Source: an uncultured bacterium
GTDB lineage: Bacteria; Verrucomicrobiota; Lentisphaeria; Victivallales; UBA1829
Direction of reading: 5' to 3'
Length of the DNA stretch: 64,000 nt
Assembly (NCBI GenBank): GCA_902778895.1
Contig: CACYZF010000003.1
Coordinates: 3,798 to 67,797, forward strand
This document shows, piece by piece, positions 18,250-59,663 of this stretch. The translations under genes and the position numbers were made by a program. The notes beneath the pieces were generated by a model. That model searched no databases. It was not told the DNA's origin and worked only from the letters and a program-made list of their open reading frames with translations. The stretch's first letter is position 1. Each line of letters begins with the position of its first letter.

Positions 18250-18276
18250 TCTATAAGCGGAAAGGGGCGAGCAGGC

Positions 18277-19242: not shown

Positions 19243-19263
19243 TTTAAGTAGGAGACAAATATC

Positions 19264-25406: not shown

Positions 25407-26223
25407 AATCGAGCCTTTCGTGGAGCGCGGTCACATCCAGGTTGCCGACGGCGTCGAAGAGCCGCACCGCGAACGTGCCGCATCCTTCGCCCGGCTTCAG
25501 GGATTCGTAGGCGATCTCGCCGCAGACGCCGTAGGCCGCGAGCGCGGCGGCGGTCGCCTCGAACAGGAATTTCGGTTCGGCCCCGGCATAGGCCGCGGTC
25601 AGGGCGGACAGCATGCAGCCGGACCCGGTGACCTTCGTCATGATCTCGTGGCCGCCCCGGATGACCGCGACGCGTCCGTCCATGCCGCCAACGAGGTCGA
25701 TCGCGCCCGTCACGGCAAACACGCAGTTGTACTTGGCGGCGAGCGCACGGACGTCCGCCACGGCGCGGTCGAGCGTTTCCTCCGTGATCGCATCGTCCGC
25801 CGAGGCGTCGACGCCGCGCGTGGCACTTTTCAGGCCGAGCAGAGCATTCGCCTCGGAACGGTTGCAGCGCACGATTGAAACGCCGCGTTTCAGGATTTCG
25901 AGAGAGAGTTCCGTACGGGACGGCGCACAACCGGTGCCGACCGGGTCGAGCAGGACCGGAATGCCGCGCCGGAGCGCAACTTCCTGCGCACCGCGGATGG
26001 CGTCACGGAAGGTCGGCGTGAACGTGCCGATATTGATGGAAAGCGCATCGGCCTTTTCCGTGAACTCAACCGCACCGACCGGATCGTCGGCCATGACGGG
26101 CGAGGCACCGGCCGCGAGCAGCATATTGGCGCAGCCGTTGGTGGTGACGACGTTCGCGAAACATTCGACGAGCGGGTGTTTTTCGCGCACCCGGGAAAAA
26201 CAGCGGATCAGCATAGTCTTCAC
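25387..26223 (-). CDS. thiM: hydroxyethylthiazole kinase
   Basis: 278 aa. CFANVVTTNGCANMLLAAGASPVMADDP and GSGCMLSALTAAY are typical ThiM motifs. Confidence 0.9.
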   Translation of the reverse strand: MKTMLIRCFSRVREKHPLVECFANVVTTNGCANMLLAAGASPVMADDPVGAVEFTEKADALSINIGTFTPTFRDAIRGAQEVALRRGIPVLLDPVGTGCAPSRTELSLEILKRGVSIVRCNRSEANALLGLKSATRGVDASADDAITEETLDRAVADVRALAAKYNCVFAVTGAIDLVGGMDGRVAVIRGGHEIMTKVTGSGCMLSALTAAYAGAEPKFLFEATAAALAAYGVCGEIAYESLKPGEGCGTFAVRLFDAVGNLDVTALHERLDYEVRQA

Positions 26224-26224
26224 C

Positions 26225-27532: not shown

Positions 27533-27574
27533 GCCTGACTCCTTGTCGTTATTGAGCAGGAAAGCATCCATAGG

Positions 27575-27685
27575 CCAATCCCTTCGCCGGCATGATCCGG
27601 ATCAGGTCTCATGCGCCGTGCACGGCGCATACGGGTCGAAGCCCTCCGGCTTCCTCTCAGCCCGCCTCGGCGGACTCCCCTGCTC
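27575..27685 (-). promoter_or_regulatory. TPP (THI-box) riboswitch
   Basis: Minus-strand RNA reads GGGGAGUCCGCCGAGGCGGGCUGAGAGGAAGCC...GACCCGU...GAGACCUGAUCCGGAUCAUGCCGGCGAAGGGAUUGG. It contains the conserved CUGAGA and ACCUGAUCNGGAUNAUGCCNGCGNAGGGA elements, immediately upstream of thiC. Confidence 0.9.
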
Positions 27686-27712
27686 AGTTATATGTTTATT
27701 GTCTGGTTAAGT

Positions 27713-38010: not shown

Positions 38011-38110
38011 ATATAATGCGCGTTGTTTCCCGGCGGGGAAACACGCCTGAATCCCGAAACATACAAACATAACATACACAAAACAAAACCAATTGAAAGG
38101 TAAGCTCAAA

Positions 38111-38965
38111 ATGAAACATTGCAAACAGGCGTTTACCCTCATTGAGCTGCTGGTCGTCATCTGCATCATCGCGATCCTGGCGTCCATGCTGCTGCCCGCT
38201 CTGCAGAGTGCGCGTGAAAGTGCAAGTACCGCGACCTGCATCAGCAACCTCGGCCAGTTCTCCAAGGCGTACCAGATGTATGCAACCAGTTACAACGACT
38301 ACATGCCCGCCCTCACCGACGGACAGACCGGCTCCAGTTGCAGCTGGGAAAGAGCTCTGATCTCGGCCCTCGGACAGGATCCGGACAAGAATTCCCCGTT
38401 CAAGAACTCCTTCTTCTGCGATGCCGACGCCTCCAGCGAAAGCGCGGCGGCCGGCGGAAACAAGAAGTCCTACAGCCTCAACAACCTGCAGGATGCCGTT
38501 CATCCGCGTATCCCCAACATGCTCGGCCCCAACGGCAAACTCGCCACGAAAGACGGCAGCAAAGGCTACATCAGCGGCAACAAGACCACGTCCGTCTTCA
38601 CCGCTTCCGACCTGATCATCATCGGCGAAAACGCCTCCTCGAGCAATAACATCGGTACCGCGAAGTTCTCCAAGACCGACGTCAACAGCCCCGGCTCCGC
38701 CAGCCCCATCCAGCAGTACATCGCCATCCTCAAGCGTCTCTCCTCCCACACCACCGCCGGCGAGCTCTATCTGGACGGCCATGCCAGACACATCAAGCCG
38801 CAGCAGACTCTCCCGGGCACCAGCACGTTCAACCTCGTCACCAAGACGACCTACAGCGACTCCCCGAAAACCGCGGCTTCCACCGGCTGGGGCAGCTGGA
38901 CGGACTGCAACTACCGCAAGGCCGGCAACGATTGCCCGGACGACACTTCCTGCCGCAAGAAATAA
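38111..38965 (+). CDS. prepilin-type N-terminal cleavage/methylation domain protein (DUF1559-like pseudopilin)
   Basis: [36 protein letters not shown] is a class III signal. C-terminal [12 protein letters not shown] resembles the H-X9-DG motif but has 8 intervening residues. Confidence 0.9.
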
Positions 38966-42282: not shown

Positions 42283-44169
42283 ATGACCGAATACCTGGCG
42301 CATCTGTGCGGCGGGATCCTTCCCGCCGTCCTCGTGGCGCTCGTCTTCGCGGCGGGATTCGCGGGCACCGGATACGGATTCCTGCGCGTCTGCGGCCTCG
42401 GACGCGGCCTGATGCGCGGCCTGACGCTCTGGATGGTCTCCCTCGCCGCCGGATTCGCCGTCTGCGCGTTTTTCTGCGCGGCCGTCCTGATGAGCCTCGG
42501 TACGGGCAGGCTCCCGTGCGCGATCTGCCCCTTTCCGGTCCTCGCCGGGATCGGATGCCTGATCCGATTCAGAAAAGAAGTCTTCCCCTCGTTTTCAGTT
42601 CGGGACCGGATGCCGTTCGCAGTCCTGATCGTCCTCATTCCCCTGCTCTTCCTCTCGATCGGCGCATTCCAGTATCCCGCGAGCTGGGACGAATGCGTGT
42701 ACCAGCTCGCCGTGCCGCAGCGCTGGCTCGCGGACGGACGCGTCCTGCTGTACCGCGATCTGCCGTACTCCGGATTCCCGATGCTCCCCCAGTTCCTGTA
42801 CGTGCCGATGATGAAGTTCGGCGGGCTGGCGGCGGTCAAATTCCTACTGTACGGCGGAGCGGCGTGTTTCTTCGCCTCGCTGACGCTTCTGGCATACGGC
42901 GGCGTCCAGCGCAACCTGATCGGCGCGTGCGTCTTCGCCGGTTCGTTCCTGATCGCGCCGCTGACGGTGCATGTCCTGATCTCCGGCTATGCCGAACCGC
43001 TGATGGGGTCGCTCCTCGCCGCGGGGCTCCTGCTCGCAGACGCCGCGCTGAAAGCGCCCGGAAAACGCTCCGATTCGCCCGGATTCGCGGCCGCATGCGG
43101 CATTCTGGCCGGAGCGATGGCCGCGGTCAAGCTGACCGGAGGATTCGCCGGAGCCGCGCTCCTGCTGTATGTCCTGCTTCGGAAACGTTCCGGACATGTC
43201 CGGTTCACCCTGTTCTTCGCGCTTGCGGGCGCTCTTTTTGCCCTGCTTTTCTATCAGCGCCCATGGATCGCGACGGGAAATCCATGCTATCCGTACCTCG
43301 CCGGTATCTTCGGTGCGCCGGAGGCGATGACGTCGGAATACCATCATCTGCTCGGAACGGAGAAGTTTGCCGGTCGTTCCGTCGTGACGCTGATCCTGCT
43401 TCTGCCGGGGCTGACCTTTCCCGCGCTTTCCAGGATGTTTGACGGGGTGTACGGCCTCCAGACGCTCCTCTGGGCGTTCCTGGTCCTGATCGCGCTCTGG
43501 CGCCGCCCGAAACGCATTTATCCGGCACTCCTGCCGCTGGCGTTCCTCTTCGTGACATGGATGCTGTCTTCGCCGCAGGCGCGGTTCCTGATCCCCGCGC
43601 TGGCATTCCTCGCCCTCATCATGCGTAACACCTTCCCGATCTTCCGCGGACGCGCCGGACGTGTCGTCCTGTGGACCGCCGTCGCGTTCTCCGTGTTCTC
43701 CTTCCCGCCGCCCGTGATCTCCAGCTATGGCGCGAATCTTCGCGCGACGGCCTCGGGCGGGGATGGACGGCGCGACGTCCTGTACGGACGCACCGGGGAC
43801 AGCATGCTTCCCGCCGTGGATATCCTGCGCAACCGCCTCGCAAAAGGAGAAAAGTGCCTGCTGATCCTTGAGGAACGCACGCTGTACTTCCCGCGCGGAT
43901 GCGAGATCGGCACGCCGTTCTTCCAGGACAAGTATTTCCCCGGCGGCAGGATCCCGGACGCGGACGGCCTGCTGAAGCTGCTGGACGACGGCGGATTCAC
44001 CTGTCTGTACGCGCGGCCGCCGGAGCGAAACCCCGATTATCTGCCGCAGGCCGTGTCTCTTTGGGGGAACAGTCTGCAGGCATCTCTGGATGCTCTGGTA
44101 AAACGCGGCTCGCTCGGGCGCGAACCGATGCCCGGCGGCGCGGAATTATATACCCGGATCCGCCGCTGA
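42283..44169 (+). CDS. large polytopic membrane protein with C-terminal soluble domain (GT-C/ArnT-like glycosyltransferase suspected)
   Basis: 628 aa, at least 12 TM helices. First periplasmic loop PASWDECVYQLAVPQRW has a DExxY-like motif as in GT-C enzymes. ~170 aa hydrophilic C-terminus. Confidence 0.6.
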   Translation: MTEYLAHLCGGILPAVLVALVFAAGFAGTGYGFLRVCGLGRGLMRGLTLWMVSLAAGFAVCAFFCAAVLMSLGTGRLPCAICPFPVLAGIGCLIRFRKEVFPSFSVRDRMPFAVLIVLIPLLFLSIGAFQYPASWDECVYQLAVPQRWLADGRVLLYRDLPYSGFPMLPQFLYVPMMKFGGLAAVKFLLYGGAACFFASLTLLAYGGVQRNLIGACVFAGSFLIAPLTVHVLISGYAEPLMGSLLAAGLLLADAALKAPGKRSDSPGFAAACGILAGAMAAVKLTGGFAGAALLLYVLLRKRSGHVRFTLFFALAGALFALLFYQRPWIATGNPCYPYLAGIFGAPEAMTSEYHHLLGTEKFAGRSVVTLILLLPGLTFPALSRMFDGVYGLQTLLWAFLVLIALWRRPKRIYPALLPLAFLFVTWMLSSPQARFLIPALAFLALIMRNTFPIFRGRAGRVVLWTAVAFSVFSFPPPVISSYGANLRATASGGDGRRDVLYGRTGDSMLPAVDILRNRLAKGEKCLLILEERTLYFPRGCEIGTPFFQDKYFPGGRIPDADGLLKLLDDGGFTCLYARPPERNPDYLPQAVSLWGNSLQASLDALVKRGSLGREPMPGGAELYTRIRR

Positions 44170-45790: not shown

Positions 45791-45818
45791 TTGAAAATGC
45801 CGGAATCCGCGGTATATT
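45791..45818 (+). promoter_or_regulatory. putative promoter of the secretin pair
   Basis: TTGAAA (45791-45796), 16 nt spacer, TATATT (45813-45818). The inverted repeat CTCTAT-TGCATTG-ATAGAG and RBS AAGGAGG lie downstream. Confidence 0.45.
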
Positions 45819-45925
45819 ATCGGCATGCGGTTTTTCATCAAAATCCATCCGCACAACCATCAAAAAAGCAAAAAGGGACTTCTCTATTGCATTGATAGAG
45901 TTGACCGAACCAAAAGGAGGGTACT

Positions 45926-47404
45926 ATGCTCAAACTCGCCCGGTGCATCCCGCTGTTCGCGTTCGCCGTTCTGCCTCCGGCTCTGTCCGGACAGACCGCG
46001 TCCGGCGGCGCGGACGACGCCTCGACCCAGACTCTGCGTTTCGTGCAGGACGACGCCCAGGACTACATGGTGTCGAAGATCTACCGCCTGAAATACATCC
46101 AGGCTAACGACATCACGCCGTTCGTGATGGGGATCGTGATGCGCTACAACATGAACTCCACCGTGAACTGCGTGGAGTACGGCGCGGACAACGCCCAGAT
46201 GCTCACCGTGACGTGTCCCGTCGAAATGATGCCGTACGTGGACGACTTCATCGCGAAAGCCGACCGGAACGTCCTCATCGACGGCAAGGTCCCCGGCGAC
46301 ATCGTGAAGGGGACGGGCATCACGCGTGCCGTCTACCGTCCGAAATACCGGTCCGGGCAGGCGCTGCTGAACGTGCTGGTCGATTCGCAGATCGGCGAAG
46401 GCGTGTACAGCAGCGTGTACGCCTGGGACCGCAACTCCAACCAGATCTACTGGAAGGACAACAGTTCGAACACGCAGTACGTATACCAGTTCCTCGGCTA
46501 CCTGGACCGTCCTGCGCCGCAGATCACGCTCACGTTCCAGCTCTACGAGGTCCGCGAAAGTACGTTCCGCGACCTCGGGATCGAGTATCTGGCGTGGAAA
46601 AACGGCCCCGGCATGAACATCTTTCAGGTCGGATTCGACGTCATCAACGTGACGTCCGCCGGAACCGCCGCGCTCAACACCATCACCGGACCGGTCGGCG
46701 GATTCCTCGCCGCGCCGCAGTTCGACGCGAGCTTCATCCGTCTCCTCGCCCAGCGCGGCGACGCGAAGGTCACGGACACCGCCTCGCTGACCGTGGCGAA
46801 CTCCGACACGGAGAGCTATTCGCTCCAGTTCAATCCGCAACTCCAGAACATCGTGAAAAGCGACAACGACGCCATGAGCGTGGTCGGCGACCAGCTTAAT
46901 CTGCCGCCCGGATTCTCGCAGGTCTTCCTGCAGGTGAACAGCCCCCTCGTCAACCTCCATTACGGCGAATCCCAGGCGGGATACCCGGCGAGCGAGGCGT
47001 TCTCCGTGAACAACTATGAACCGGGGACGTATACGGACATGAACGGTACGCTGTTCTTCGGCTACACCGTGCAGGCCGCGAACACGGTCGAACGCGCGGG
47101 CGACGGCACGGAACTGATCGAAACGAGCGAGGTCTCCAGCGACGCCCTGATCCCGCTCAACGAGGAGGTCGTGCTCGGCCAGTGGGACAAGGAGCAGGAC
47201 GTGGAGCAGACGATCGGCATCCCGTGGCTGTGCCGCATCCCGTACCTCAAATACATCTTCAGCACCGTCACGACCAACCGCGAGACGACCCGCGTGTACC
47301 TCACCGTGACCGCGCGGATGCTGGACAGCGCGAGCCCGCAGACGCTCGATTTCGAAACCGGCGAACTGAAGAAAGTCGAAAAAGCGGAAGGAACCGTACA
47401 ATGA
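45926..47404 (+). CDS. secretin-family outer-membrane channel protein, paralog A
   Basis: 492 aa. Signal peptide. N-domain-like KIYRLKYIQANDITPFV. Secretin core begins at QITLTFQLYEVRESTFRDLGIEY. C-terminal signature GIPWLCRIPYLKYIFSTVTTNRETTRVYLTVTARM. Confidence 0.8.
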   Translation: MLKLARCIPLFAFAVLPPALSGQTASGGADDASTQTLRFVQDDAQDYMVSKIYRLKYIQANDITPFVMGIVMRYNMNSTVNCVEYGADNAQMLTVTCPVEMMPYVDDFIAKADRNVLIDGKVPGDIVKGTGITRAVYRPKYRSGQALLNVLVDSQIGEGVYSSVYAWDRNSNQIYWKDNSSNTQYVYQFLGYLDRPAPQITLTFQLYEVRESTFRDLGIEYLAWKNGPGMNIFQVGFDVINVTSAGTAALNTITGPVGGFLAAPQFDASFIRLLAQRGDAKVTDTASLTVANSDTESYSLQFNPQLQNIVKSDNDAMSVVGDQLNLPPGFSQVFLQVNSPLVNLHYGESQAGYPASEAFSVNNYEPGTYTDMNGTLFFGYTVQAANTVERAGDGTELIETSEVSSDALIPLNEEVVLGQWDKEQDVEQTIGIPWLCRIPYLKYIFSTVTTNRETTRVYLTVTARMLDSASPQTLDFETGELKKVEKAEGTVQ

Positions 47405-49179
47405 AGCAAATCAACCTCATTTCCATCGTTGCGGCGGGTATTGTGAGCCTGCTGAATCCGAACATGCGCGCCGCCGACCTGCCCGGCGTCCCGCGCGACT
47501 CCAATTTCAACAACACCGGCGGCTACGACGCCACGCGGATCGTCGCCCGCCTGAACGTGAACGTGGACCCGGGGACGAAGGTCGTGCATTTCATCCGGGA
47601 CAACAACGACCCGCGCGTGGTCACGAAGACCTATCTGCTCCGGCACGTCGACCCGTACGAGTTCCGCGACTATCTGCGCCAGATGGTCCAGACGAAGCGC
47701 GTCGGCAACACCATGCTCCAGCAGCAGTACCCGTCGAACACCGCCGCGCCGCCGTTCCTCGCCACGGAAAGCTCCGTCGAGCTCGGCTCCGCCAACGCCC
47801 AGCCCGGCTACACGCCGCCCGTCCAGCTCGGCAGCAACACCGCCGTCGAGTGCCTGAAGTATGCCGACGGAACCGGGCTGCTCATCGTCAGCGCCGAAGA
47901 GTACCGGTTCAGCGACAACGAGAACGGCATCGGCATCGACACGCTGGTTGCCACGCTCGACGACCCGGCACTCGGCGCGCTGAACTACGGCTATCAGATG
48001 TACATCTACATGCCGAAATTCGTGCCCGCGCGCAACCTGATGCCGCTCATCGAAAACGTCGGCATGAACATCAACGACGCGTCGGAGGTGTGGCAGGGCA
48101 TGGACCTGGTCGCGTACGACCCGGATCTGAACTGGCTCATCTTCGACGTCTGCAACTACTCCTGCGACAACATCGCGCACATGCTCGCCAAGTTCGACGT
48201 CCCGGTCCCGCAGGTCCGCCTGAAGATCAAGGTCTACGAGCTCGACACCGAGAACGACGACCGCATCGGCATCGACTTCCAGGGCTGGAAGAACAACGAG
48301 GGCGCGGACTTCTTCTCCGTCGGCGGACGCTACCGCAACAACTGGTCGTCCGTGTACAGCGGCGGCGTCGGCCCGGTCTCCGCCTACGGCTCCGAGCGCA
48401 CCAGCTACTTCAACTTCAACCCGAAGTGGAACACACGCTACATCGACTTCCTGGAATCGCGCGGCAAGGCGAAGGTCCTGCACACCGGCGAACTCTGCAT
48501 CCGCAACGCCGCCGAGGGTGCCACGTTCGCGCGTACCACGCAGCTGCTCTACTCCGACGACTCCGCGGCCGTCTCGAAGGCGCAGGCCACGCCCGACATG
48601 GGCGTCGGCCCGTATCAGCTGCTTTCGCAGATCATCAACAAGGTATTCGACAAGGGCGATCCGCTCCCCGTCGGCAAGGGCGAGGCGCAGGAGATCAAGG
48701 CGTTCACGGGATTCGGGTTCACCATGACCGTGAACAACGTCTCCGTCAACCTCGAGGAAACGCGTTTCGACGTCACGCTCTCCAACACCAGCCTGCTTGG
48801 GTTCCAGTCCAACGGCGCGCCGCGCGTTTCGAACGGCGGCGTGGTGAAGCAGGTCGTCAGCCTGCCGCACGGCAAGGACACGTTCGTGATCGGCGGCCTC
48901 ACGAAACAGGAAGAGGTCGAATCGCGCACGGGCGTGCCGTGGCTTATGGACATCCCCGTGCTCGGCTATCTCTTCAGCTCGGTCTCGAATTCGGTCAAGC
49001 ACACCGAGCTGGTCGTGATGGCGCAGTGCGAATGGGATTCGCCTGCCGACAAGCCCGACCTCAAGAACACCTCGAAGGCGGAGACGCGCGGCGCGCCCGT
49101 CGCGGCGAAGAAAACCGCCTCGGGGCCCGTCATGCCCGCGCAGAACATCCCGGCGGACGTCCCGCAGCCTCAGATTTGA
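47401..49179 (+). CDS. secretin-family outer-membrane channel protein, paralog B
   Basis: 592 aa from ATG 47401, which overlaps the paralog A stop (ATGA). Signal peptide. KTYLLRHVDPYEFRDYL N-domain. Core VPQVRLKIKVYELDTENDDRIGIDF. C-terminal FVIGGLTKQEEVESRTGVPWLMDIPVLGYLFSSVSNSVKHTELVVM. Confidence 0.85.
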   Translation: MKQINLISIVAAGIVSLLNPNMRAADLPGVPRDSNFNNTGGYDATRIVARLNVNVDPGTKVVHFIRDNNDPRVVTKTYLLRHVDPYEFRDYLRQMVQTKRVGNTMLQQQYPSNTAAPPFLATESSVELGSANAQPGYTPPVQLGSNTAVECLKYADGTGLLIVSAEEYRFSDNENGIGIDTLVATLDDPALGALNYGYQMYIYMPKFVPARNLMPLIENVGMNINDASEVWQGMDLVAYDPDLNWLIFDVCNYSCDNIAHMLAKFDVPVPQVRLKIKVYELDTENDDRIGIDFQGWKNNEGADFFSVGGRYRNNWSSVYSGGVGPVSAYGSERTSYFNFNPKWNTRYIDFLESRGKAKVLHTGELCIRNAAEGATFARTTQLLYSDDSAAVSKAQATPDMGVGPYQLLSQIINKVFDKGDPLPVGKGEAQEIKAFTGFGFTMTVNNVSVNLEETRFDVTLSNTSLLGFQSNGAPRVSNGGVVKQVVSLPHGKDTFVIGGLTKQEEVESRTGVPWLMDIPVLGYLFSSVSNSVKHTELVVMAQCEWDSPADKPDLKNTSKAETRGAPVAAKKTASGPVMPAQNIPADVPQPQI

Positions 49180-49199: not shown

Positions 49200-49649
49200 A
49201 TGAAACAGCTCATCTATGCAATCCTCTGTTTTCTCTGCCTGTTTTCCCTCGCCGCGTGCGTAGTGGTCGAGAAGGACGATTTCGAGGACGTCGACGCGGA
49301 CGACGCGATGCTTGTGGAGTCCGTGAACCTCGGAAACAACATCCTGGCGTCGTTCCGCGACGAGGATTTTGCAAAGTTGAGGAAGAACATCCCCGGTCCG
49401 CTTCAGACGAAGATGACCGAAAAGGACTTCAAGACCTCGTGCACGAACTGGCGCGACACGCTCGGCAGGATCAAGGATTACGATTATGTCCTTGAGCTGG
49501 ACACGCCCGCGGTGCGGAACCTGATCTGGCGCGTGGAGTTCGAACGTGACACAACCGACGGGGACAAGGTCGAACAGGACATGCTGTTCCGCCTCGTGAC
49601 CGGGAACGTCGACGATGAAACGTGCGTGCTGTCCTGCGGATTTTTGTAA
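49200..49649 (+). CDS. small lipoprotein, hypothetical (candidate secretin accessory/pilotin)
   Basis: 149 aa. Lipobox LFSLAAC. Acidic N-terminal linker, then a compact ~120 aa domain. Starts 20 nt after secretin B with RBS AAGGAG. Confidence 0.7.
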   Translation: MKQLIYAILCFLCLFSLAACVVVEKDDFEDVDADDAMLVESVNLGNNILASFRDEDFAKLRKNIPGPLQTKMTEKDFKTSCTNWRDTLGRIKDYDYVLELDTPAVRNLIWRVEFERDTTDGDKVEQDMLFRLVTGNVDDETCVLSCGFL

Positions 49650-49725: not shown

Positions 49726-52700
49726 TCAATTCACCGATGTCAGGTTGATGCGGCTCACGTTGAGACCGTCGGATTTCCAGCGGAGTTCGAGCGTGTGGAA
49801 GCCCTGCTTGAACTCGACCGGATAGGACTTCGTGTCGATCCAGTTCTGATCGCCGCCGGTGGAAGTCGCGTTGAACGTCGCCGCGATCTCGCCGTCGAGG
49901 TACAGCTCGATTGCGAGCTGCGCCAGCGTGTTCGCCTGGCCGCTCGCCACGCGCAGGGAAACCGCGTACTTGCCGTCCTTAGTGCAATGAACCGCATAAC
50001 GCGCCACACTGCCGACCGTGGCATTGAAAATGGCATGGTCCGAGTCCTTTATCGGCACACCGTTTTGACTGCCGCTAAGATCTTTTTGCGAGTCTTTCGT
50101 GCGGAGTCCCTGCGAGAGGAATATTGTGCTTTCGGCCGCCATGATCGACATGAACCCCATAGTCGGGATCTCGATCTTGTCGAGTTCGATGACGCCGACG
50201 GGGCGTCCGTTGCTGACAGCATTGAAGTCGATCGTGTATTCGCGGGCATCCGCGCCGGAGCCGGTGCGGATCATCACGGTCTTAGCGGCGTCGTTCCGCG
50301 TGATCTTCTTTTCGACTCCGGCGGGCGTCGCGACCTCGATCTTCGCGGCTACGAAATCGATGCCGGGGAGATAGTAGTTCGTCACGGCGGGATTGAACCC
50401 GATCTTCTCGCCGTTGACCGTGATGTCGGTCGGGGCGTTCTTGATTTCAACGCCGGACTTGCCTGCGGTCGCGGAAGCGCTTGCGGCGCTCGGAACGTCG
50501 GATTTGGCGTCCGAGCTCACTGCAAACCAGTCTTCGCCGGGCTGGTAGGTGTTTGGGAGATTGTGCGCCTTGCGGAACGTGCGGGAGTTCATCACGTAGT
50601 TCAGCACGTTCTTCGCGCCGCGCTGCATTTCGCCGAGCGTGATGCCCGCCTCGATGCCGTCCGGACGGCCCGCCGCCACCCACTGGTTGTAGGATTCGAG
50701 CAGGGAGTTGTCTTTGCCGCGGGCGGGGCCGTCGCCGGGCATGAGCACGTCCATCTGGGAGCGGACGCGCCACGCGTTGTTTTTGACGTGGAGCGCGTCG
50801 GACGCGCCTTCACGCGCCCACCAGTCGGTCATGAGGGAGCCGGTCCAGCCCCACTGGCCGCGCAGGATGGTGGTGTCGAGGTCGTAGTTGTAGTAGTTCC
50901 AGAAGCTGTTGATCTTGTTGTAGCTGCCCATGATGTTGTAGGGCTTGCCGGCCTTCACGCAGATTTCGAACGCCCGCAGGTAGATTTCGCGGAGGGCGCG
51001 TTCGGAGCAGCGCGAATCGTTGGCGTTGCGGTTGGTCTCCTGGTTGTTCAGCGCGAAGTGCTTCGGCACGGTGGACGCGCCCGCTTTCTGGATGCCGCGT
51101 GTCATGGACGCCGCCATGAGCCCGGTGAGGAGCGGGTCTTCGGAGTAGTACTCGAAGTTGCGTCCGCAGAGCGGGTTGCGGTGGATGTTCATGCCGGGGC
51201 CGAGGATGCAGTCGACGCCATTCATTTCCATCTCCAGGCCGACCTGGTAGTACATCGCCTCGATCAGGTCATTGTTCCAGGTGCAGGCGAGCAGGGAGCC
51301 GATGGGCAGGAGCGAGGCGTTCGCGGAGAGGCGCAGGCCGGAGGGGCCGTCGCAGGTCGCGATGGGCGGGACGCCCTTGTCGCGGACGCTCTGGAGCGTG
51401 CCGCCGAAGACGGAGGCGTTGCCGGCGGGTCCGAGCGGGCTGCCCATGCCGCCGTCGCCGCGGAGGAGCGTTTCGATCTCGGCGGGCGTGAGCTGTGCCA
51501 CGAATTCGTCAAGCGTGTTCTTGCCGTTCTTCACATCGATGAGCTTGATGCCCTTGTCGCCGGTCTCCGGCACGGCCTTCGGGAGGCGTTCCTTCACGCG
51601 GGCGGGGAGGTCGACGTTCGAAACCGGGACGCGTTCCGTGCCGGCGACGAGCTTGCCGCCCTGTTCGACGGCCTTCATGCGGTCGAACGCAACGCTTTCC
51701 GAGGCGATCGCGAGGGCGGGCTCGAGCTGTTCGATCACGGCGAGTTCGCCGAGCTCAACACTGCCGGAATCTTTTGCCGCGCGGCTGCTGTTCCCGACGT
51801 AGAACATGTACTTGCCGGGTTCGAGGACCCATGCGGCCTGATGTCCGGTCGCGCCGCTGTCGTCGAACGAGGCGAAATCTTTCGTCGGGATCGTGAAGGT
51901 GAAACTCTGGGCTTCACCGGGGGCGAGCGCTTTCGTCTTCGCGTATGCCACCAGGACTTTCGCGGGCTTGCCGAGCTTGCCCTGCGGCGCGCCACAGTAA
52001 ACCTGCACGACTTCACGGCCGGAGAACTTCGGGCCCGTGTTCTTCACGGTGGCCTTGACGGTCACTTCTCTCTTCGCGAGGTCGGGGCAGTTCACGGTCA
52101 CGCCGAAGATGTCGAACGTGGTGTAGCTGAGGCCGAATCCGAAGGGATACAGGACCTTTTCCGGGGCGAACGTCTCGAAGTAGCGGTAGCCGACGTAGAT
52201 GTCCTCAGTATAGTTGTTGAAATCGCGGTTGCCGAAGCTCGAGGATGACGGATAGTCCTGATAGGTGTTCGCAATGGCGGACGCGAGCTTGCCGGACGGC
52301 GTTTCCTTTCCGGTCAGCACGTCCACGATCGCGTTGCCGGTCTCCATGCCGCCCTGCCAGACGTACATCAGGGCGTCGATCTTGTAGTCCTTCACCCACG
52401 CCATGTCGATCACGTTGCCGACGTTCAGCAGGACGACGGTCTTCTTGAACGAGCCGGTGATCTCCTTGAGGAGGAACTTTTCCGCGTCGGTGAGGTAGTA
52501 GCTGCCGGGTTCGAGCCTGCATTCGCGGTCTTCGCCCGCGGCGCGCCCGATCACGAGCACGGCGGTGTCGGCGCGCTTGGACGCGGCCTGGATCTGCTCG
52601 GCGGTGATGGGCATTTCGGGGGCGTAGAACGGCCAGTTGCCCCAGCCGCCCGCGCGGAGCGGATTCGCCTGCGCCCACTTCGTGTAGGTGTCGAGGAGTT

Positions 52701-53037
52701 CTTTGTCCGGCACGATCTTGTCGGTTTTGGCGAGGGCGTCGTTGAGCGTGACGCGGTACGGCGGCTTCACGTCGCCGCCGGAGCCGTAGCCGACCAGGAA
52801 GGTCTGGATCTGCGTGATACCGAAGAACGCGACGGGCTGCGCGCCATCCTGTCCGAGCGGGAGCGCATTGTTGTCGTTCTTGAGCAGCACGATGCCTTCG
52901 GCGGCGGCGCGGCGGGCGTACTCCTGCACGGCCGGGTTCACGGCGGCGAACGCCTGGACGGAGAGCAGGGCGGCCGCGGCGGCGCACGAGGCTCCGGCGG
53001 CTGCCTTGAAATTGAGGAACGGGATGTGGAATTTCAT
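49726..53037 (-). CDS. secreted GH3 beta-glycosidase with permuted domain order, cadherin-like and CBM6/35-like C-terminal modules
   Basis: Signal peptide from MKFHIPFLNF... (start 53037). The GH3 C-terminal-type alpha/beta sandwich and FnIII-like region come first. The GH3 catalytic barrel follows (GPSGLRL, NIHRNPLCGRNFEYYSEDP, SYNKIN, LMTDWWA). The tail ends in a CBM-like beta-sandwich (...LELRWKSDGLNVSRINLTSVN). Confidence 0.85.
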   Translation of the reverse strand: MKFHIPFLNFKAAAGASCAAAAALLSVQAFAAVNPAVQEYARRAAAEGIVLLKNDNNALPLGQDGAQPVAFFGITQIQTFLVGYGSGGDVKPPYRVTLNDALAKTDKIVPDKELLDTYTKWAQANPLRAGGWGNWPFYAPEMPITAEQIQAASKRADTAVLVIGRAAGEDRECRLEPGSYYLTDAEKFLLKEITGSFKKTVVLLNVGNVIDMAWVKDYKIDALMYVWQGGMETGNAIVDVLTGKETPSGKLASAIANTYQDYPSSSSFGNRDFNNYTEDIYVGYRYFETFAPEKVLYPFGFGLSYTTFDIFGVTVNCPDLAKREVTVKATVKNTGPKFSGREVVQVYCGAPQGKLGKPAKVLVAYAKTKALAPGEAQSFTFTIPTKDFASFDDSGATGHQAAWVLEPGKYMFYVGNSSRAAKDSGSVELGELAVIEQLEPALAIASESVAFDRMKAVEQGGKLVAGTERVPVSNVDLPARVKERLPKAVPETGDKGIKLIDVKNGKNTLDEFVAQLTPAEIETLLRGDGGMGSPLGPAGNASVFGGTLQSVRDKGVPPIATCDGPSGLRLSANASLLPIGSLLACTWNNDLIEAMYYQVGLEMEMNGVDCILGPGMNIHRNPLCGRNFEYYSEDPLLTGLMAASMTRGIQKAGASTVPKHFALNNQETNRNANDSRCSERALREIYLRAFEICVKAGKPYNIMGSYNKINSFWNYYNYDLDTTILRGQWGWTGSLMTDWWAREGASDALHVKNNAWRVRSQMDVLMPGDGPARGKDNSLLESYNQWVAAGRPDGIEAGITLGEMQRGAKNVLNYVMNSRTFRKAHNLPNTYQPGEDWFAVSSDAKSDVPSAASASATAGKSGVEIKNAPTDITVNGEKIGFNPAVTNYYLPGIDFVAAKIEVATPAGVEKKITRNDAAKTVMIRTGSGADAREYTIDFNAVSNGRPVGVIELDKIEIPTMGFMSIMAAESTIFLSQGLRTKDSQKDLSGSQNGVPIKDSDHAIFNATVGSVARYAVHCTKDGKYAVSLRVASGQANTLAQLAIELYLDGEIAATFNATSTGGDQNWIDTKSYPVEFKQGFHTLELRWKSDGLNVSRINLTSVN

Positions 53038-53134
53038 ATTGGTTCCTTCCATTGAGAATGGGGGTTGATCATGGAGGAGCAAGGATGGATGAAAAACGGC
53101 TGCCTCTTTGCGGGAGACAGCCGTAACGCCGTGC

Positions 53135-56100
53135 TTATTTGAAGTCGGCGGCGGTCAATTCGACCGAGCCCTTCTTTCCGGTGAGGTCGACGGTCTTGCC
53201 GTTGTAGCGGGCGACGATCGGGATGCCGGTGAGGTCGGAGATCACGGCCTTGCCGAGGGTGCCGTTGTCCCACTGGATGGCGACCGTGGCGTTGCCGCGC
53301 GCCTTCAGTCCGGAGACGTTGCCTTTCGGGAGCGCCTTCGGGAGGCAGGGCAGAACGTCGATGATGGTCTTGCCGTCGGCGGTCGTCTCCTGCGACTGGA
53401 GCAGGATCTCGATCATGCCGGCCGCGCCGCCGAAGTTGCCGTCGATCTGGAACGGCGGATGCGCGTCGAAGAGGTTGTTGTAGGTCTTGTTCGGGTGGAT
53501 GAGATTGCTGACGAGCCGCCATGCGCGGTCGCCGTCGAGGAGGCGTGCCCACAGGTTGATCTTCCAGCCCATGCTCCAGCCGGTGGCGTCGTCGCCGCGG
53601 GCGTTCAGGGAGACCTTCGCGGCGTTGAAGAGGGCGGTGTCACTGGCGCGGATCACGTTGCCGGGGAACACGGTAAAGAGGTGGGAGACATGGCGGTGCT
53701 TGTTGTTCGGGTTGTCGTCCGGATGGTCGTCCATCCACTCGCGGAGCTGTCCCCAGGTGCCGATGGTGAACGGCGGGAACTTCTTCATCGCGGCTTCCAT
53801 CTTCGCGCGGAATTCGGGGTCGTCGTTGAGGAGCTTGGAGCTCTCGATGGTGGCCTTGAAGAGCGCGGTCAGGATGCCGGTGTCCATGGTCGGGGAGGCG
53901 CAGAGGCCGCCCTGTTCGGGCGAGTAGGACGGGATGGTGACGAGGACGCCGCCGTGCTTGGGATCGGGCTGGAGGAAGTCGAGGTAGAACGCCACGGATT
54001 CCTTCATGACCGGGTAGTGCTTGCGGAGGTCGTCGAGGTTGCGCGTGAACTGGTAGTGATCCCAGAAATGGAGGCACAGCCAGGCGCCGCCCATGGGCCA
54101 CATGCCGGTGGGCGAGAAGTCGATCGGGCCGCACTGGCGCCAGAGGTCGGTGTTGTGGTGCGCCACCCAGCCGTTGTCGACATTGTAGAGCTTCTTCGCG
54201 GCCTTCTTGCCGTTCGGGACCATCTCGTGGATCATGTCGAAGAGCGGCTCATGGCACTCGGAGAGGTTCGCGGTCTCGGCGGGCCAATAGTTCATTTCCG
54301 CGTTGATGTTGATCGTGTACTTGCTCTGCCACGGCACGTTCACCTCTTCGCTCCAGATGCCCTGAAGGTTGGCGGGCTGGCTGCCGGGACGGGAGCTGGC
54401 GATCAGGAGGTAGCGGCCGAACTGGAAGTAGAGGGACGCCAGGTCGGGGTCGAGCTGGTTGCCGGGCTGGCGGCGGGCGTTGAGGCGCTCGTCGGTCGGA
54501 AGTTTGGACGGGGTGCCGCCGAGGTCGAAGGTCACGCGGTCGAAGAGCTTGCGGTAGTCTGCGATGTGCGCCTTCTTCAGGGCGTCGTAATCAACGGAGC
54601 TGAACTTCTTGAAGACGTCGGCGATGCGCTTCGCGGGATCGCCGGAGACGTCGTTGTACGCCTTGAACGAGGATTCGGCGTCGAGCAGGATGACAACGGA
54701 GTCGGCCTTTTCCACGCTGATGCCGCGTTCGCCGGAGACGAGCTTGCCGCCCTTGTTGAACACGCGGCCAGTGATCTGGATGTTCGTCGCGCCCTTGATG
54801 CCGTTGTAGTCGATGGTGCGGCCGGTGAGGGTCATGGTGTTGCCTTCGACCTTGACGGCCTGGAGGTCCTGCGCGGTGCCGATGAAGGCTCCGACGGTGA
54901 TGCTGGCGGGCTTGTCGGCGGTCAGGCGCATGGCGACCACGCGGTCCGGATAGCTGGCGAAGTATTCGCGGGTGTAGGTCACGCCGTTGCGCGTGAATTT
55001 GGTCTGCGCGACGGCTTCGCGGATATTCAGGCTGTGGATGTAGCCGGAGATGTCGCCGTCGCCGGTGTCCTGTTCAAGCCCGAGCGCGCCCGCCACGGAG
55101 AACGCCATTTCGGCGCTCGGACGGGAAATGAAGCTGCTGTTCGCGATGTTTCCGGCCTGGTCCGCTCTGCCGTCGAAGATGAGCTGGCGCATCTGCGCGA
55201 GCTTCTCAGGGGTGGCGTCCGGATTCAGGTGGTCGTACGGACCGCCCGCCCAGATCGTGTCCTCGTTGAGGATGAGGTATTCACGCTCGGGACGGCCGGC
55301 GATCATCGCGCCCATGTGGCCGTTGCCGATGGGAATCATGTCAGTCCAGGTGCCGGGCATGCGGCGGAACCAGACCGTGAGCGGATCTTCGGGAGCCGGG
55401 GCGGGATTGGGATCGGCGTCGCCGCGGAGGATGTTCACGTTGCGGACGGGGAACAGGGGCACGCCTCCGGTGATGGGCTTCGCGGCCTTGATGTCCCAGG
55501 AGTAATTCGCCTTGGCATCGGCGAATCCCGCGGCCTCATCGGAACTGGAGTAGAGCTTGTTGATCTCGTCGGCGGAGAGGGCGCGGTCCCACAGCGCCAC
55601 ATAGTCGATCCGACCGTTGAACCGGCTGTTGCCGTTGGCGTCCGAACCGATGGTCATGGCGCGCCAGGTGGGCTCGCCGATCACATTGTTCGCGCGGCCC
55701 TGGGCGAGGCGTTCACCGTTCGCGTACACCTCGAAACGGTGTTCCTTCTGGCTCGCCACGATGACGAGTTTCACGGGTTTGCCTTTCGGGAAGCTGTCCG
55801 AGCTGACCTGCGCAGCTCCCTGGACGCCGTTCACACGGAGACCGGTCTGAGCCGCGGGCTGCTGTCCCCAGCCGCCGCCGGGGCCGCCGGGACCGCCGCC
55901 GAAGCCGCCGCCTCCGAATCCTCCGCCGGGGCCGCCGCCTCTGCCGCCACGGCCGCCGCCACCGCCGCCGGTGAAGCTGACGGAGAAGCCGCAGTTTCCG
56001 CCCTGCTGGTTCAGAAGAGTTCCGTTCCAGTTGTCGCTTTCAGCGGTGATGGCGATGGTCATTTCGTGCGGAGTCGAGAGCAGACGTCCGACGGGCGTGG

Positions 56101-56182
56101 AAAGAGGCTGCGAGGGTTCCGCCGCAACGGACGAGAGCGCGGCGAGGGCCATCAGAGCCGAACAGAGCAGGAAGCGTTTCAT
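53135..56182 (-). CDS. secreted GH95 alpha-L-fucosidase-family enzyme with N-terminal LamG-like domain
   Basis: 1015 aa. Signal peptide. LamG-like module (RFNGRIDYVALWDRALSADEINKLY). GH95 hallmarks IPIGNGHMGAMIAG...LILNEDTIWAGGP and YTININAEMNYWPAE. Confidence 0.85.
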   Translation of the reverse strand: MKRFLLCSALMALAALSSVAAEPSQPLSTPVGRLLSTPHEMTIAITAESDNWNGTLLNQQGGNCGFSVSFTGGGGGGRGGRGGGPGGGFGGGGFGGGPGGPGGGWGQQPAAQTGLRVNGVQGAAQVSSDSFPKGKPVKLVIVASQKEHRFEVYANGERLAQGRANNVIGEPTWRAMTIGSDANGNSRFNGRIDYVALWDRALSADEINKLYSSSDEAAGFADAKANYSWDIKAAKPITGGVPLFPVRNVNILRGDADPNPAPAPEDPLTVWFRRMPGTWTDMIPIGNGHMGAMIAGRPEREYLILNEDTIWAGGPYDHLNPDATPEKLAQMRQLIFDGRADQAGNIANSSFISRPSAEMAFSVAGALGLEQDTGDGDISGYIHSLNIREAVAQTKFTRNGVTYTREYFASYPDRVVAMRLTADKPASITVGAFIGTAQDLQAVKVEGNTMTLTGRTIDYNGIKGATNIQITGRVFNKGGKLVSGERGISVEKADSVVILLDAESSFKAYNDVSGDPAKRIADVFKKFSSVDYDALKKAHIADYRKLFDRVTFDLGGTPSKLPTDERLNARRQPGNQLDPDLASLYFQFGRYLLIASSRPGSQPANLQGIWSEEVNVPWQSKYTININAEMNYWPAETANLSECHEPLFDMIHEMVPNGKKAAKKLYNVDNGWVAHHNTDLWRQCGPIDFSPTGMWPMGGAWLCLHFWDHYQFTRNLDDLRKHYPVMKESVAFYLDFLQPDPKHGGVLVTIPSYSPEQGGLCASPTMDTGILTALFKATIESSKLLNDDPEFRAKMEAAMKKFPPFTIGTWGQLREWMDDHPDDNPNNKHRHVSHLFTVFPGNVIRASDTALFNAAKVSLNARGDDATGWSMGWKINLWARLLDGDRAWRLVSNLIHPNKTYNNLFDAHPPFQIDGNFGGAAGMIEILLQSQETTADGKTIIDVLPCLPKALPKGNVSGLKARGNATVAIQWDNGTLGKAVISDLTGIPIVARYNGKTVDLTGKKGSVELTAADFK
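55868..55969 (-). repeat. glycine-rich RGG/FGG low-complexity insertion inside the GH95 N-terminal domain
   Basis: Encodes GGGGGGRGGRGGGPGGGFGGGGFGGGPGGPGGGW (aa 72-105). The first 39 nt differ at only 3 positions from the start of the AKR tail repeat (40995-41033). Confidence 0.8.
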
Positions 56183-57061: not shown

Positions 57062-59659
57062 TTACTGCGCGGCGTCGGTGTGCGCCGCCAGGTCGCCGGG
57101 CGAATTGCTCCAGAGAAGCGCCAGGTTCGCGCCGCGCACCCAGCCCTCGTCGTTGTTTTCCAGCCGCACGCGCACCCAATCCATGCGGTTCTCCTCGATG
57201 GAGACCTCCGCACCGGGTTTCAGGTATTGTTCCACACGCCCGGATTCGGCGGACGGCAGACTGTACAGCGGCGTATTGCGGACGATCACGACGGCTTCGC
57301 GCGCCGGATCGTCGGCGGACGCCTTCGCGATGAGCGCGGCAGCGCAGATCACGACGACCACGATCCCGGCATAGAACGGCCATTGCCACAGATTCGAATG
57401 GCGCTGGAAGAACATCCCGAGCGCGATCAGCACGAGCGCGAGGCCGCACGCGCAGGATACGAGCCATTCATCCACGCGAAGGAAATCGCGGGCCGCAAGC
57501 ATGAAGTCCGCGGGCGACTCCACACGGTATTTCGGCGGCAGAAGCAGTTTGCGGCGCGTCAACTCCAGGTTGCCGGAGATGTCCGAATCGCGCGGCTGAA
57601 GATAGCGGGCGCGTTCATAGCAGACCAGGGCACGCGGATAGTCGCCAAGCTGGTAGAAGCAGTTGCCCATGTTGTAGAGCAGAGCAGGCGAGACGTTGCG
57701 CGGGTCGATCTTCGAAGCGTAGTAATCCAGCGCCTGCCGGAACTGCCCGGCGTCGTAAGCGGTTTTCGCCTCGTCCGAGTTCTTCGGGAGCACGGTTTCT
57801 GCGGAAACGGACTTGTCCGCCGGTGCGGATTCCTCTTCCGCGGCGTCCGCAGGCAATGCGAAACAGAGCGCGCCGAGGAGGAACGCGATCGCGCCGAACT
57901 TGCGGACAGCGGACGCGAGCTGTTTGCGGAATTTTACGTTGAGCTGACCGCGGAGCGACGGCATCCACGCGGTGTTCGCGAGGTCTTCGAGCTGGCGGCC
58001 GAGCTCCGGTTCGGAATCCTTCACACGGGACGCCGTTTCGCTCAGGGAGGTCCCCGGCGGTAGGTCGAGCATGTCGTTGAAGAACGCGGCCAGGTCCGCG
58101 CCGACTTTGTCCGGCAGGTCCTGAGGCGGCGTCTTTTCGATGGCGGAGGCGAGTCTGCCTCTGCGGGCGCGGGCGCCGATGCGCCTGCGTGCGGAAGGAT
58201 CGGATTCGAGGGAACGTTTCCGGGCGGCGGCCAATGCGCTTCCGCCCGCGAAGACGGAACCGGCGAGAATCAATCCAAGCGATATCCACAGGGCATTCAT
58301 CGCCAGCGGCATCGCCACGCGTCCGCCGTCGTCCTCGTCGTGCAGATACAGGATGCTTTCCGGCGCGGGCGCCGAGGCGGCGCCCGAGGTCAGGTCGGGA
58401 TCGGCGTTCACGACCGCCGCGCCAGCGGGGATCGCGGCCATGCCGCCGGACACGGCCTTGTCCACCTTGACCGTCTCACTGAACTTGAACGGGACATACT
58501 GGCCGGTCGACGGATCGAACGTGGAACAGTTGAAGGAAACGGTCTGTTCGCCCCCCGCAAGCGGAATGAGGATGCAGCTCACGGAGACGCCGGACGCCGT
58601 TTCCTTGGTCTCGGGCGGATACGCGCGGAAATGCTCCGGTTCGATCTTCGGCATGTTCAGCATCTCGGTCTGGTCCTCGCCCGTGAAGTTGATCTTGAGG
58701 CTAAGAGGTTCCCCGATGCGGTACGGACCGGGTGAAAGCGAGGCTTCCGGCGCCCATTTTCCGATGAGTCCGACGAACGGCGCGTCCGCGGGCGCGGCGG
58801 GCAACGGCTTGATCGTAATCTCCGGAGAAGCACCGCGGATGGTCTGCCGGGTCGTGGTGAACGCTGAGAAAAAGTCGCGTTCATCGAGCAGGATGGCGGC
58901 GGTATCGGCGACGAGCTGAAGCTGACCGGGCGCGAGCGCGCGGAATTTCGTGTCGAAATCGTACACGGTATACGGGATGTTTCCGAGGCGCTGGTTATGG
59001 CTGGTAATGGACTCGAAGTTCGGCGCTTCCGGATTGACCTTGCGGAAATCGTGGAACCGGATCGACATCTTTCCGTCGGCCGACTTGATCTCCGGGTAGT
59101 TCGCGAGGCGGAGTTCATACGGCGTGCGCACGAAAATCGAGAGCTGGAGCGGAATCTCCTCGCCGACCCAGAACACCGGCGTCTTGTCCTCCGCGACACC
59201 GGGGAACGTCATACGGGAGTAGACCGGCTCGTTGGAGTTCACCTGCGACGGGTCGAGCTTCGGCATGGCGGAGATCCGGATCCGGACTGGACCGGCCGAT
59301 TCCGGCTGGCGCGTGTTGCCGTTCACGATGACCTCGAATGACGGAATTGTGAAGTCGCCTTCCTCGCGGGCAGTGAACGGGATGCGGAGCGTGTATTTCG
59401 AGGAGGTCACGCCGTTGATGACGGACATGCTGGAGCCGCTGGAGATGCCGCTGTTCCACTCGATCCCGGAGACGCGTCCCGGCATCCGGTTGACCTGGAG
59501 ACGGCTCACGTTTTCGGCGGAGATCTCGATGTATCCGCGCATGCCCACGGTAAGGTTGCGCGGCTGGACGGAAACGTTCAGGTCGACGGCCGAGGCGGCA
59601 AACGCGAAAAGAAAGAGCAGGAAAGCAATGAGTCGGGGAAGAATCGTTCTGTTCGGCAT
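57062..59659 (-). CDS. BatD-like protein fused to BatE-like TPR + SH3 modules
   Basis: Signal peptide. BatD-type repeated beta domains (LNVSVQPRNLTVGMRGYIEISAENVS ... GDFTIPSFEVIVNG). TM helices. TPR (YNMGNCFYQLGDYPRALVCYERARYLQP). More TM helices. C-terminal SH3-like REAVVIVRNTPLYSLPSAESGRVEQYLKPGAEVSIEENRMDWVRV. The start may be 59683. Confidence 0.8.
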   Translation of the reverse strand: MPNRTILPRLIAFLLFLFAFAASAVDLNVSVQPRNLTVGMRGYIEISAENVSRLQVNRMPGRVSGIEWNSGISSGSSMSVINGVTSSKYTLRIPFTAREEGDFTIPSFEVIVNGNTRQPESAGPVRIRISAMPKLDPSQVNSNEPVYSRMTFPGVAEDKTPVFWVGEEIPLQLSIFVRTPYELRLANYPEIKSADGKMSIRFHDFRKVNPEAPNFESITSHNQRLGNIPYTVYDFDTKFRALAPGQLQLVADTAAILLDERDFFSAFTTTRQTIRGASPEITIKPLPAAPADAPFVGLIGKWAPEASLSPGPYRIGEPLSLKINFTGEDQTEMLNMPKIEPEHFRAYPPETKETASGVSVSCILIPLAGGEQTVSFNCSTFDPSTGQYVPFKFSETVKVDKAVSGGMAAIPAGAAVVNADPDLTSGAASAPAPESILYLHDEDDGGRVAMPLAMNALWISLGLILAGSVFAGGSALAAARKRSLESDPSARRRIGARARRGRLASAIEKTPPQDLPDKVGADLAAFFNDMLDLPPGTSLSETASRVKDSEPELGRQLEDLANTAWMPSLRGQLNVKFRKQLASAVRKFGAIAFLLGALCFALPADAAEEESAPADKSVSAETVLPKNSDEAKTAYDAGQFRQALDYYASKIDPRNVSPALLYNMGNCFYQLGDYPRALVCYERARYLQPRDSDISGNLELTRRKLLLPPKYRVESPADFMLAARDFLRVDEWLVSCACGLALVLIALGMFFQRHSNLWQWPFYAGIVVVVICAAALIAKASADDPAREAVVIVRNTPLYSLPSAESGRVEQYLKPGAEVSIEENRMDWVRVRLENNDEGWVRGANLALLWSNSPGDLAAHTDAAQ

Positions 59660-59663
59660 GATG

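Follow-up and report, generated by a model that had tools for sequence, protein, structure and literature searches.

The 64-kb stretch of DNA analyzed here, the whole of which we call the window, contains a tandem pair of genes for secretin paralogues, A and B, followed closely by a gene for a small lipoprotein, C, which the initial annotation of this DNA overlooked. The source names of the closest proteins place the window in the Lentisphaeria/Victivallales. All three genes lie on the plus strand. Gene A (45926-47404) encodes 492 aa and has 732 homologues, the top ones 92% identical to it, and gene B (47401-49179) encodes 592 aa, with 1287 homologues of which the closest shares 97% identity. 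The start codon of B (47401-47403) lies on the stop codon of A (47402-47404), and the resulting ATGA overlap at 47401-47404, which had been noticed before, can be read directly in the sequence (gtacaATGAagc at 47396-47407). Since homologues of B begin at the equivalent methionine, with the consensus MKK..L, we place the start of B at the ATG at 47401 rather than at an in-frame GTG at 47182. An AGGAGG Shine-Dalgarno sequence lies 7 nt ahead of the ATG of A, and the 309-bp gap that separates A from a divergent MatE gene holds a candidate sigma-70-like promoter (plus strand, 45791-45820; TTGAAA, a 16-18 nt spacer and TATATT/TATTAT), which is a pattern match only, scored 10/12 in a consensus scan. 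Gene C (49200-49649; 149 aa, lipobox FSLAAC) starts 20 bp after B, and a scan found no plus-strand terminator between A, B and C.

Both A and B are secretins, as had been proposed: the Pfam Secretin profile (PF00263, cut-off 27.5) gives 39.5 bits for A and 63.2 for B, so neither falls outside the family, with matches that cover the C-terminal half of the profile only (positions 84-168 for A and 73-163 for B, of 169). In A, a signal peptide is followed by two putative Secretin_N-type domains of beta-alpha-beta-beta-alpha order (residues ~48-112 and ~135-193) and then by the secretin core (~199-465). B has the same architecture, except that ~45 aa are inserted into its first N domain and that its N-terminus bears a conserved peptide (GVPRDSNFNNTGGYD). 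The two proteins can be aligned colinearly over their full length (E=3e-23) at an identity of 23%, a degree of divergence consistent with the distant similarity first described, and this end-to-end alignment marks them as old paralogues with one common architecture. The motifs quoted initially all appear in it: KIYRLKY (A) and KTYLLRH (B) in the N domains, QITLTFQLYEV (A) and VRLKIKVYEL (B) at the start of the core, and the C-terminal secretin signatures GIPWLCRIPYLKYIFS (A) and GVPWLMDIPVLGYLFSS (B). The cleavable signal peptides that had been assigned to both are likewise present at the N-termini (MLKLARCIPLFAFAVLPPALSG/Q in A, MKQINLISIVAAGIVSLLNPNMRA/A in B), as read by eye with no predictor used. 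For the N domains themselves, the Secretin_N profile (PF03958) gave 13.7 bits for A, below its cut-off of 28.2, and precomputed matches to it exist for many orthologues of A. A Pfam scan detected no N0/STN, AMIN or S domain in either protein.

The AlphaFold2 (AF2) model of A (predicted local distance difference test score, pLDDT, 65.7) contains two beta-alpha-beta-beta-alpha units followed by long beta-hairpins. In a Foldseek search of the PDB it matched GspD, InvG, PilQ, pIV, BfpB and RcpA at E=1e-21 to 1e-12, and 40 solved secretin chains were matched at E<1e-11 with a probability of 1.00; the TM-scores were low (0.25-0.35), because the model is a monomer. The AF2 monomer of B was poor (pLDDT 50), unfit for a fold search and used for secondary structure only. 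The secretin fold is thus assigned to A from AF2 and Foldseek, and to B from its colinearity with A only.

The pair could not be placed in any one secretin subclass. Matches were obtained with the NCBIfam models for GspD, PilQ, SctC, MshL, HofQ and Amuc_1098 alike, with scores that are mutually similar and far under every cut-off: 35.9 (A) and 71 bits (B) against 351 for TIGR02517 (GspD), 42.8 and 63.4 against 284 for TIGR02515 (PilQ), and 46.5 and 56.9 against 238 for TIGR02516 (SctC). Profile searches of the PDB gave weak matches (~1e-8), confined to the C-terminal part and scattered over secretins of type II secretion systems (T2SS), phages, Tad systems and type IV pili (T4P). Architecture and context agree with these scores. 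The N0-N1-N2-N3 layout of GspD is absent, with no STN/N0 match and only two N domains, there is neither an AMIN or N0 match nor a set of pilMNOP genes in the window as expected for PilQ, and no type III secretion system (T3SS) genes are present that would go with SctC. A prophage or pIV-like origin was ruled out, as there are no phage genes around the pair in the window or in related loci and the pair is conserved at chromosomal sites, with at least 385 A-type matches in species-representative genomes. In sum, A and B are members of the known secretin superfamily that GspD, PilQ, SctC, pIV and Amuc_1098 each fail to describe.

That A and B work together is indicated by their conservation as an ordered unit. 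We scanned one genome per GTDB species with A as the only seed, which gives the scan a reach of A-type loci and places B-only loci outside it. The best 80 loci of the 385 A-type matches, all from Lentisphaerota, were combined with seven from metagenome assemblies into a set of 87, all of which entered the clustering of neighbouring ORFs; the related metagenome-assembled genomes (MAGs) are mostly from gut and rumen, as sample names suggest. A secretin is present in 86 loci, of which 76 have A and then B and one (strain zth2) has ABAB, while the reverse order B-A occurs in none. In the other nine only A is complete, mostly on short contigs or on contigs that stop at B or within it. Of 78 pairs, 75 have the two genes -4 to 46 bp apart, 10 of them at exactly -4; these distances are approximate, because starts were taken from the longest ORFs. 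The A-B order holds at ~30-34% identity to the window's A (L005-7). On one short contig (L089) a truncated upstream gene scores A-like and the downstream gene B-like, consistent with the same order, and the contigs of two further distant representatives (P0346 and P0308) are too short for context.

The two genes have also diverged in step. The pairwise identity matrices of the A set and the B set are highly correlated (r=0.95), and when the sets were clustered separately they yielded the same five clades (adjusted Rand index 0.96). At least 10 genomes have two or more pairs, typically one of clade 2, which includes the window's pair, and one of clade 3, and these genomes with several A-B loci imply that the module was duplicated and retained as a unit. 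The A-B unit is obligate in Lentisphaerota: A and B are co-encoded and co-evolving, as one would expect of the proposed hetero-oligomeric secretin, with 77 of the 86 loci being AB or ABAB. A frameshifted single gene was ruled out as an explanation of the pair, since both ORFs are complete and, in relatives with long enough contigs, A and B are separate genes, colinear over their full length and each with a complete architecture.

Several loci depart from the simple pattern. In the cultured deep-sea strain zth2 (CP071032; L078, 6744-14258) the ABAB tandem is followed by a 375-aa ORF without a family match. In L017 (11398-13190) B is in two pieces (11398-12021 and 12024-13190), reflecting a frameshift, a pseudogene or an assembly error. 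L093 (10001-11644) carries a lone 547-aa secretin-like gene whose N-terminal region matches the A profile twice (residues 12-165 and 174-429), and which might be a relative encoded by one gene, or a form with a duplicated domain. Tandem secretin pairs, surrounded by housekeeping genes, also turned up in one MAG with the label Candidatus Sumerlaeota, in another with the label Planctomycetota and on a 398-kb contig without a label (L094, 2180-5336; L095, 2758-6112; L092, 10001-13717). In pairs of this type, first genes are 33-40% identical to first genes and second to second 32-38%, compared with 25-31% for first against second, and this position-specific orthology suggests that the two-secretin arrangement may be older or wider than Lentisphaerota. 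A literature search on tandem, paired or heteromeric secretins, or on secretins of Lentisphaerae or Victivallis, returned nothing relevant; in an eLife paper about strains zth2 and WC36 the sole mention is of 'secretion system' genes that were up-regulated (PMC11361711).

Based on this conservation we can outline how the module might be built. A, B and C would form one transcription unit encoding a two-subunit secretin module, in which equimolar A and B would co-assemble into a single gated outer-membrane channel, as a mixed, probably alternating, ring or as two coaxial rings; a mixed A-B ring would imply an even subunit number. The initial annotation had already suggested a hetero-oligomeric pore, and the part of that suggestion that has gained is the joint working of A and B, strengthened by their invariant order, co-divergence and duplication as a unit, while the hetero-ring itself still has to be deduced from these. 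There is precedent for multi-protein complexes around a secretin in PilQ-TsaP, BfpB-BfpG, TcpC-TcpQ and RcpA-RcpB-TadD, where a secretin goes with a second co-encoded protein and often with a lipoprotein, and RcpA-TadD (8odn), PilQ-TsaP (6ve2) and BfpBG (9u5s) are among the structural or profile matches of our pair. However, the partners in those systems are non-secretins, whereas A and B both carry a full secretin core, and the A-B locus, unlike theirs, has no pilMNOP, bfp, tcp or tad genes nearby.

Comparison with single secretins gives a similar picture of partial likeness. With GspD (V. cholerae EpsD, K. pneumoniae PulD), A and B share the secretin core, the VP.L.DIP.LG.LF motif and probably Secretin_N-type domains. 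In the fold search with A, GspD structures ranked first (E=1e-21 to 1e-18), as one did in the PDB profile search with B (6i1y, E=2.6e-8). GspD, however, is the product of a single gene, a homo-15-mer with N0-N1-N2-N3 domains, often with an S domain and a pilotin, and encoded in a gspC-M operon, whereas A and B are two paralogues with two N domains each, without N0 and without a gsp operon; neither gspC nor any of gspE-M was found in the 64-kb window. The pIV protein of phage f1 (PDB 7ofh), the top PDB profile match for A (E=5.3e-9), is like A and B short, has only two periplasmic N domains and does without a pilotin, but it has N0, is phage-encoded and forms a homo-15-mer, while A and B are chromosomal and phylum-wide, with no phage genes around. 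A further comparison is with Amuc_1098 of Akkermansia (NF042912), a secretin of the PVC superphylum that is a single protein of ~800 aa; B scores 22.7 bits against its model, the cut-off being 750, and is not a member.

The same data bear on a simpler arrangement, in which A and B would be two independent homo-oligomeric secretins that share an operon, each with its own ring and its own job and no A-B complex. Every solved secretin among our matches carries the annotation of a one-protein ring, A and B each have a complete secretin architecture and their own signal peptide, and the two tandem GspE-type ATPases that we describe below could mean two sub-machines. Independent rings would nevertheless predict occasional loss, separation or reordering, none of which is seen in 77 loci, with A down to ~30-40% identity; both genes have been duplicated together each time, with congruent trees, and their overlap or close spacing implies matched expression. 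We consider this arrangement improbable.

Gene C adds a third component. In 26 loci a C homologue accompanies the pair on the pair's own strand, either before or after it and directly adjoining it in all but one, and all 26 members have a cysteine-containing, lipoprotein-type signal end. C thereby resembles a pilotin in being a small lipoprotein co-encoded with a secretin. Searches of Pfam, NCBIfam and PDB profiles found no homology to the known pilotin types (PulS, AspS, PilW, MxiM, InvH, TadD), so C could be assigned to none of these. Within the family, 9 of 20 members show weak similarity to DUF3887 (NTF2-like; best E=6.8e-5); the window's C has no Pfam or NCBIfam match, and in PDB profile searches it retrieves de novo NTF2 designs only, at E≥0.14. 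C may assist the pair in assembly or as an accessory protein, for instance as a lipoprotein that helps to assemble or anchor it.

What such a channel might serve is harder to read from the locus. A Pfam scan of the window's genes, which took in all but four ribosomal-protein/rpoA genes and some short ORFs of doubtful status, and a motif scan in six frames both failed to find a GspE/PilB ATPase, GspF/PilC, PilMNOP, prepilin peptidase or Tad gene in the 64 kb, in agreement with what had been stated at the outset. The one pseudopilin-like gene mentioned there is also the only item related to type IV filaments that we find, an N_methyl (prepilin-like) protein at 38093-38965. In the wider set, L010 (4533-9251) carries genes for two PilB/GspE-type ATPases and PilC/GspF directly upstream of C-A-B, transcribed divergently; a second Walker-A motif match, in L070, proved to be an unrelated membrane protein. 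With the L010 GspF as a probe, we found the same GspE-GspE-GspF trio isolated among housekeeping genes in two more Lentisphaeria contigs (L090, 6580-11248; L091, 6466-11260), with no secretin, pseudopilin or GspC/L/M alongside. The trio consists of two tandem MshEN-domain ATPase paralogues and one platform protein, the tandem ATPase paralogues mirroring the tandem secretin paralogues. Since GspE-GspE-GspF is itself an isolated module, scattered machinery seems to be normal in Lentisphaeria and not special to the secretin locus. The missing machinery that the initial annotation emphasized is thus indeed missing from the window, but it is not a peculiarity of this locus, the trio being itself an isolated module in Lentisphaeria.

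We therefore favor a reading, to which we would give a probability of roughly one half, in which A and B form an obligate two-subunit secretin channel that, helped by C, serves a dispersed filament machine. The channel would be the outer-membrane gate of a type-IV-filament machine made up of the stand-alone GspE-GspE-GspF and scattered pseudopilin-like genes, and the paralogous pairs would be alternative, condition-specific gates, for example for phosphate starvation, as the pairs of clades 3-5 seem to be under Pho control and in many cases are joined to the pst operon (see below). The physical co-assembly of A and B, the role of C and the coupling to GspE/F are parts of this scheme that we infer. 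We prefer it because the prior for secretins acting in such machines is high, because the N domains are conserved and because the adjacency in L010 agrees with it. Numerous columns of the N domains are invariant (QDDAQD.MVS in A and HF.RD..DPRV in B are examples), as would be expected if they met a conserved partner in the periplasm.

A number of observations weigh against this scheme. GspE/F genes lie within 10 kb of the pair in only one of the 87 loci (L010), and the recurrent neighbours are instead solute-transport genes (pst, GadC/glutamate decarboxylase, antiporter/decarboxylase), which favors a conduit for small solutes. In known secretin systems the N0 domain docks GspC or PilP, and it is this docking part that is undetected in A and B. 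The monomer models are mediocre (pLDDT 65.7 for A and 50 for B), and to our knowledge all characterized secretins, of T2SS, T3SS, T4P, Tad systems and phages, are homo-oligomers. Finally, our survey covers loci rather than whole genomes, and a separate canonical secretin that serves the GspE/F machine is conceivable.

The neighbourhoods of the pairs vary between genomes and consist mostly of housekeeping genes. Besides C (26 loci), the recurrent neighbours are amino-acid permeases of the APC type (17 loci), glutamate decarboxylase (11 loci), Orn/Lys/Arg decarboxylases (5 loci) and a Pst/Pho set comprising PstS, PstC/A, PstB, PhoU and PhoB/R-type regulators. By Pfam/NCBIfam the glutamate decarboxylase is well identified (620, cut-off 380), as is the basic amino-acid/polyamine antiporter (515, cut-off 409), while the permease beside glutamate decarboxylase is GadC-like and under the curated cut-off. 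Pairs of clade 2 are often flanked, in several arrangements, by a GadC-like permease and glutamate decarboxylase or by an antiporter and an Arg/Lys/Orn decarboxylase. For the window's pair, the divergent MatE is the sole transporter neighbour.

At least 12 loci, drawn from three A/B clades, have pstS next after B in the same orientation, mostly with a gap of 25-93 bp, and the identity of PstS is secure (equivalog match of 372, cut-off 205); these pst-linked pairs belong to clades 3 and 5, with one clade-2 locus, and genes for PstC/A, PstB, PhoU and PhoB/R-type proteins then follow. Upstream of A or pstS, the pst-linked loci have direct repeats, CCTAACA-N4-CCTAACA, with an 11-bp period and sometimes three units. 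The core of this repeat, [CT]TAAC-N6-[CT]TAAC, has 16 exact matches on both strands of 1.35 Mb, where shuffles predict 7.8, and 11 of the 16 lie within the 350 bp that precede A genes or pstS genes, regions that make up 1.2% of the search space. When a match of at least 9/10 within 250 bp upstream of A was scored as a candidate Pho box, such matches were found for 8/16 pairs of clade 3, 2/3 of clade 4 and 8/14 of clade 5, together 18/33 and including some without pst nearby (L062, L076), as against 1/38 in clade 2, the one being the sole pst-linked locus of that clade, and 1.2% of random windows; these figures are to be read with the caveat that the motif was derived partly from regions later scored and that some loci are closely related to one another. 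Ahead of the window's own A gene there is no match (best 6/10). Candidate boxes lie at L051 9696-9711, L058 2793-2808, L061 1460-1475, L053 3466-3481, L056 9702-9717, L066 8828-8843, L077 12927-12942, L086 3481-3496, L062 9816-9831 and L076 9784-9799. Judged by these motifs, most paralogous pairs would belong to the Pho regulon, and the window's pair to a clade that does not. We know of no earlier description of this candidate Lentisphaerota Pho box.

These contexts raise the possibility that secretins have here given rise to an outer-membrane conduit, formed by the pair, for small hydrophilic solutes such as phosphate, amino acids and amines, independent of any type-IV-filament machine. It would be a functional analogue of porins like OprP/PhoE, with different pairs tuned to, or co-regulated with, different inner-membrane transporters. 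The placement of pstS directly after B in three clades, the candidate Pho boxes, upstream of A in over half of the clade 3-5 pairs and also in pairs without pst, the antiporter and decarboxylase genes repeatedly beside pairs of the window's clade, the several pairs per genome and the absence of an N0 docking domain all speak for it, and such a conduit accounts better than a filament gate for the contexts, the number of copies and the lack of N0. On the other hand, secretin pores are very large, gated and normally sealed, we know of no secretin that acts as a solute porin, and two highly conserved periplasmic N domains, superfluous for a simple porin, have been kept. The window's own pair, moreover, has neither a transporter neighbour other than the divergent MatE nor a Pho-box match, and the motif owes part of its definition to the regions on which it was scored. 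The analogy with OprP/PhoE, as with the Hxc T2SS and its secretin HxcQ, is that the paralogous A-B pairs likewise occupy an outer-membrane place in a Pho regulon; this is a likeness by context and not by homology, OprP and PhoE being 16-strand trimeric porins with a fold unrelated to secretins. The Hxc system of Pseudomonas is a complete, Pho-regulated T2SS operon with one lipidated secretin, and since Pho control is thus also known for a T2SS, it is indecisive between the two roles. Altogether, we regard such a conduit as the main alternative, possible but on the doubtful side. The more specific version, that A and B form a two-subunit nutrient or solute channel wired into the Pho regulon/pst and antiporter-decarboxylase modules, and not a pilus or secretion gate, we likewise hold to be rather unlikely; if true, PVC-group bacteria would provide the first example of a secretin fold turned into a hetero-oligomeric pore for uptake or exchange.

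The initial annotation also named the adjacent glycoside hydrolases as plausible cargo, the pair then being a dedicated export pore for them. The GH3 (49726-53082) and GH95 (53135-56182) genes do lie directly downstream in the window, and signal peptides were noted on their products at that stage. They are, however, on the opposite strand and convergent with the pair, homologues of GH3 occur near the pair in 1 of 87 loci and of GH95 in 0 of 87, and pair neighbourhoods otherwise hold housekeeping or transporter genes. With this adjacency unconserved, we reject GH3/GH95 as cargo and consider a dedicated export pore very improbable; the module is not dedicated to these neighbours.

Of the two contrasting roles, we continue to prefer the two-subunit gate of a dispersed filament machine. 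Whichever role applies, what may be new here is the combination of paired secretin paralogues, a possible hetero-oligomeric build and an unexpected tie to phosphate and amine transport. A co-evolving, ordered secretin pair across a phylum points to a different construction principle for large outer-membrane pores, and the pair provides a handle on the poorly known envelope of Lentisphaerota, which are polysaccharide degraders of gut, rumen and marine habitats. The links to pst, to the candidate Pho boxes and to antiporter/decarboxylase genes suggest that secretin pairs take part in nutrient acquisition. Since cultured strains exist, namely Victivallis vadensis and the deep-sea strains WC36 and zth2 (PMC11361711), these predictions are directly testable.

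Elsewhere in the window, several features that are separate from the pair deserve mention. Four tandem paralogues (405, 309, 318 and 321 aa; 14713-19677) share a lipoprotein-like leader (…LLFAV.AAAL…C.GC) and are followed by a fifth ORF of 137 aa; none of the five has a Pfam match. A thiC/thiM/thiE-HAD operon occupies the minus strand at 24138-27713, with no TPP riboswitch detected upstream of thiC by Rfam, which had no match anywhere in the 64 kb at gathering thresholds. Two large ORFs without a Pfam match (42283-44169, 628 aa; 27713-29428, 571 aa) are also present, the 628-aa product having long hydrophobic stretches and probably being a membrane protein. Finally, at 57062-61946 a gene for a BatD-like/TPR/SH3 protein (873 aa) overlaps one for a VWA-domain protein (760 aa), and by its look this is likely a Bat (aerotolerance-type) cluster.

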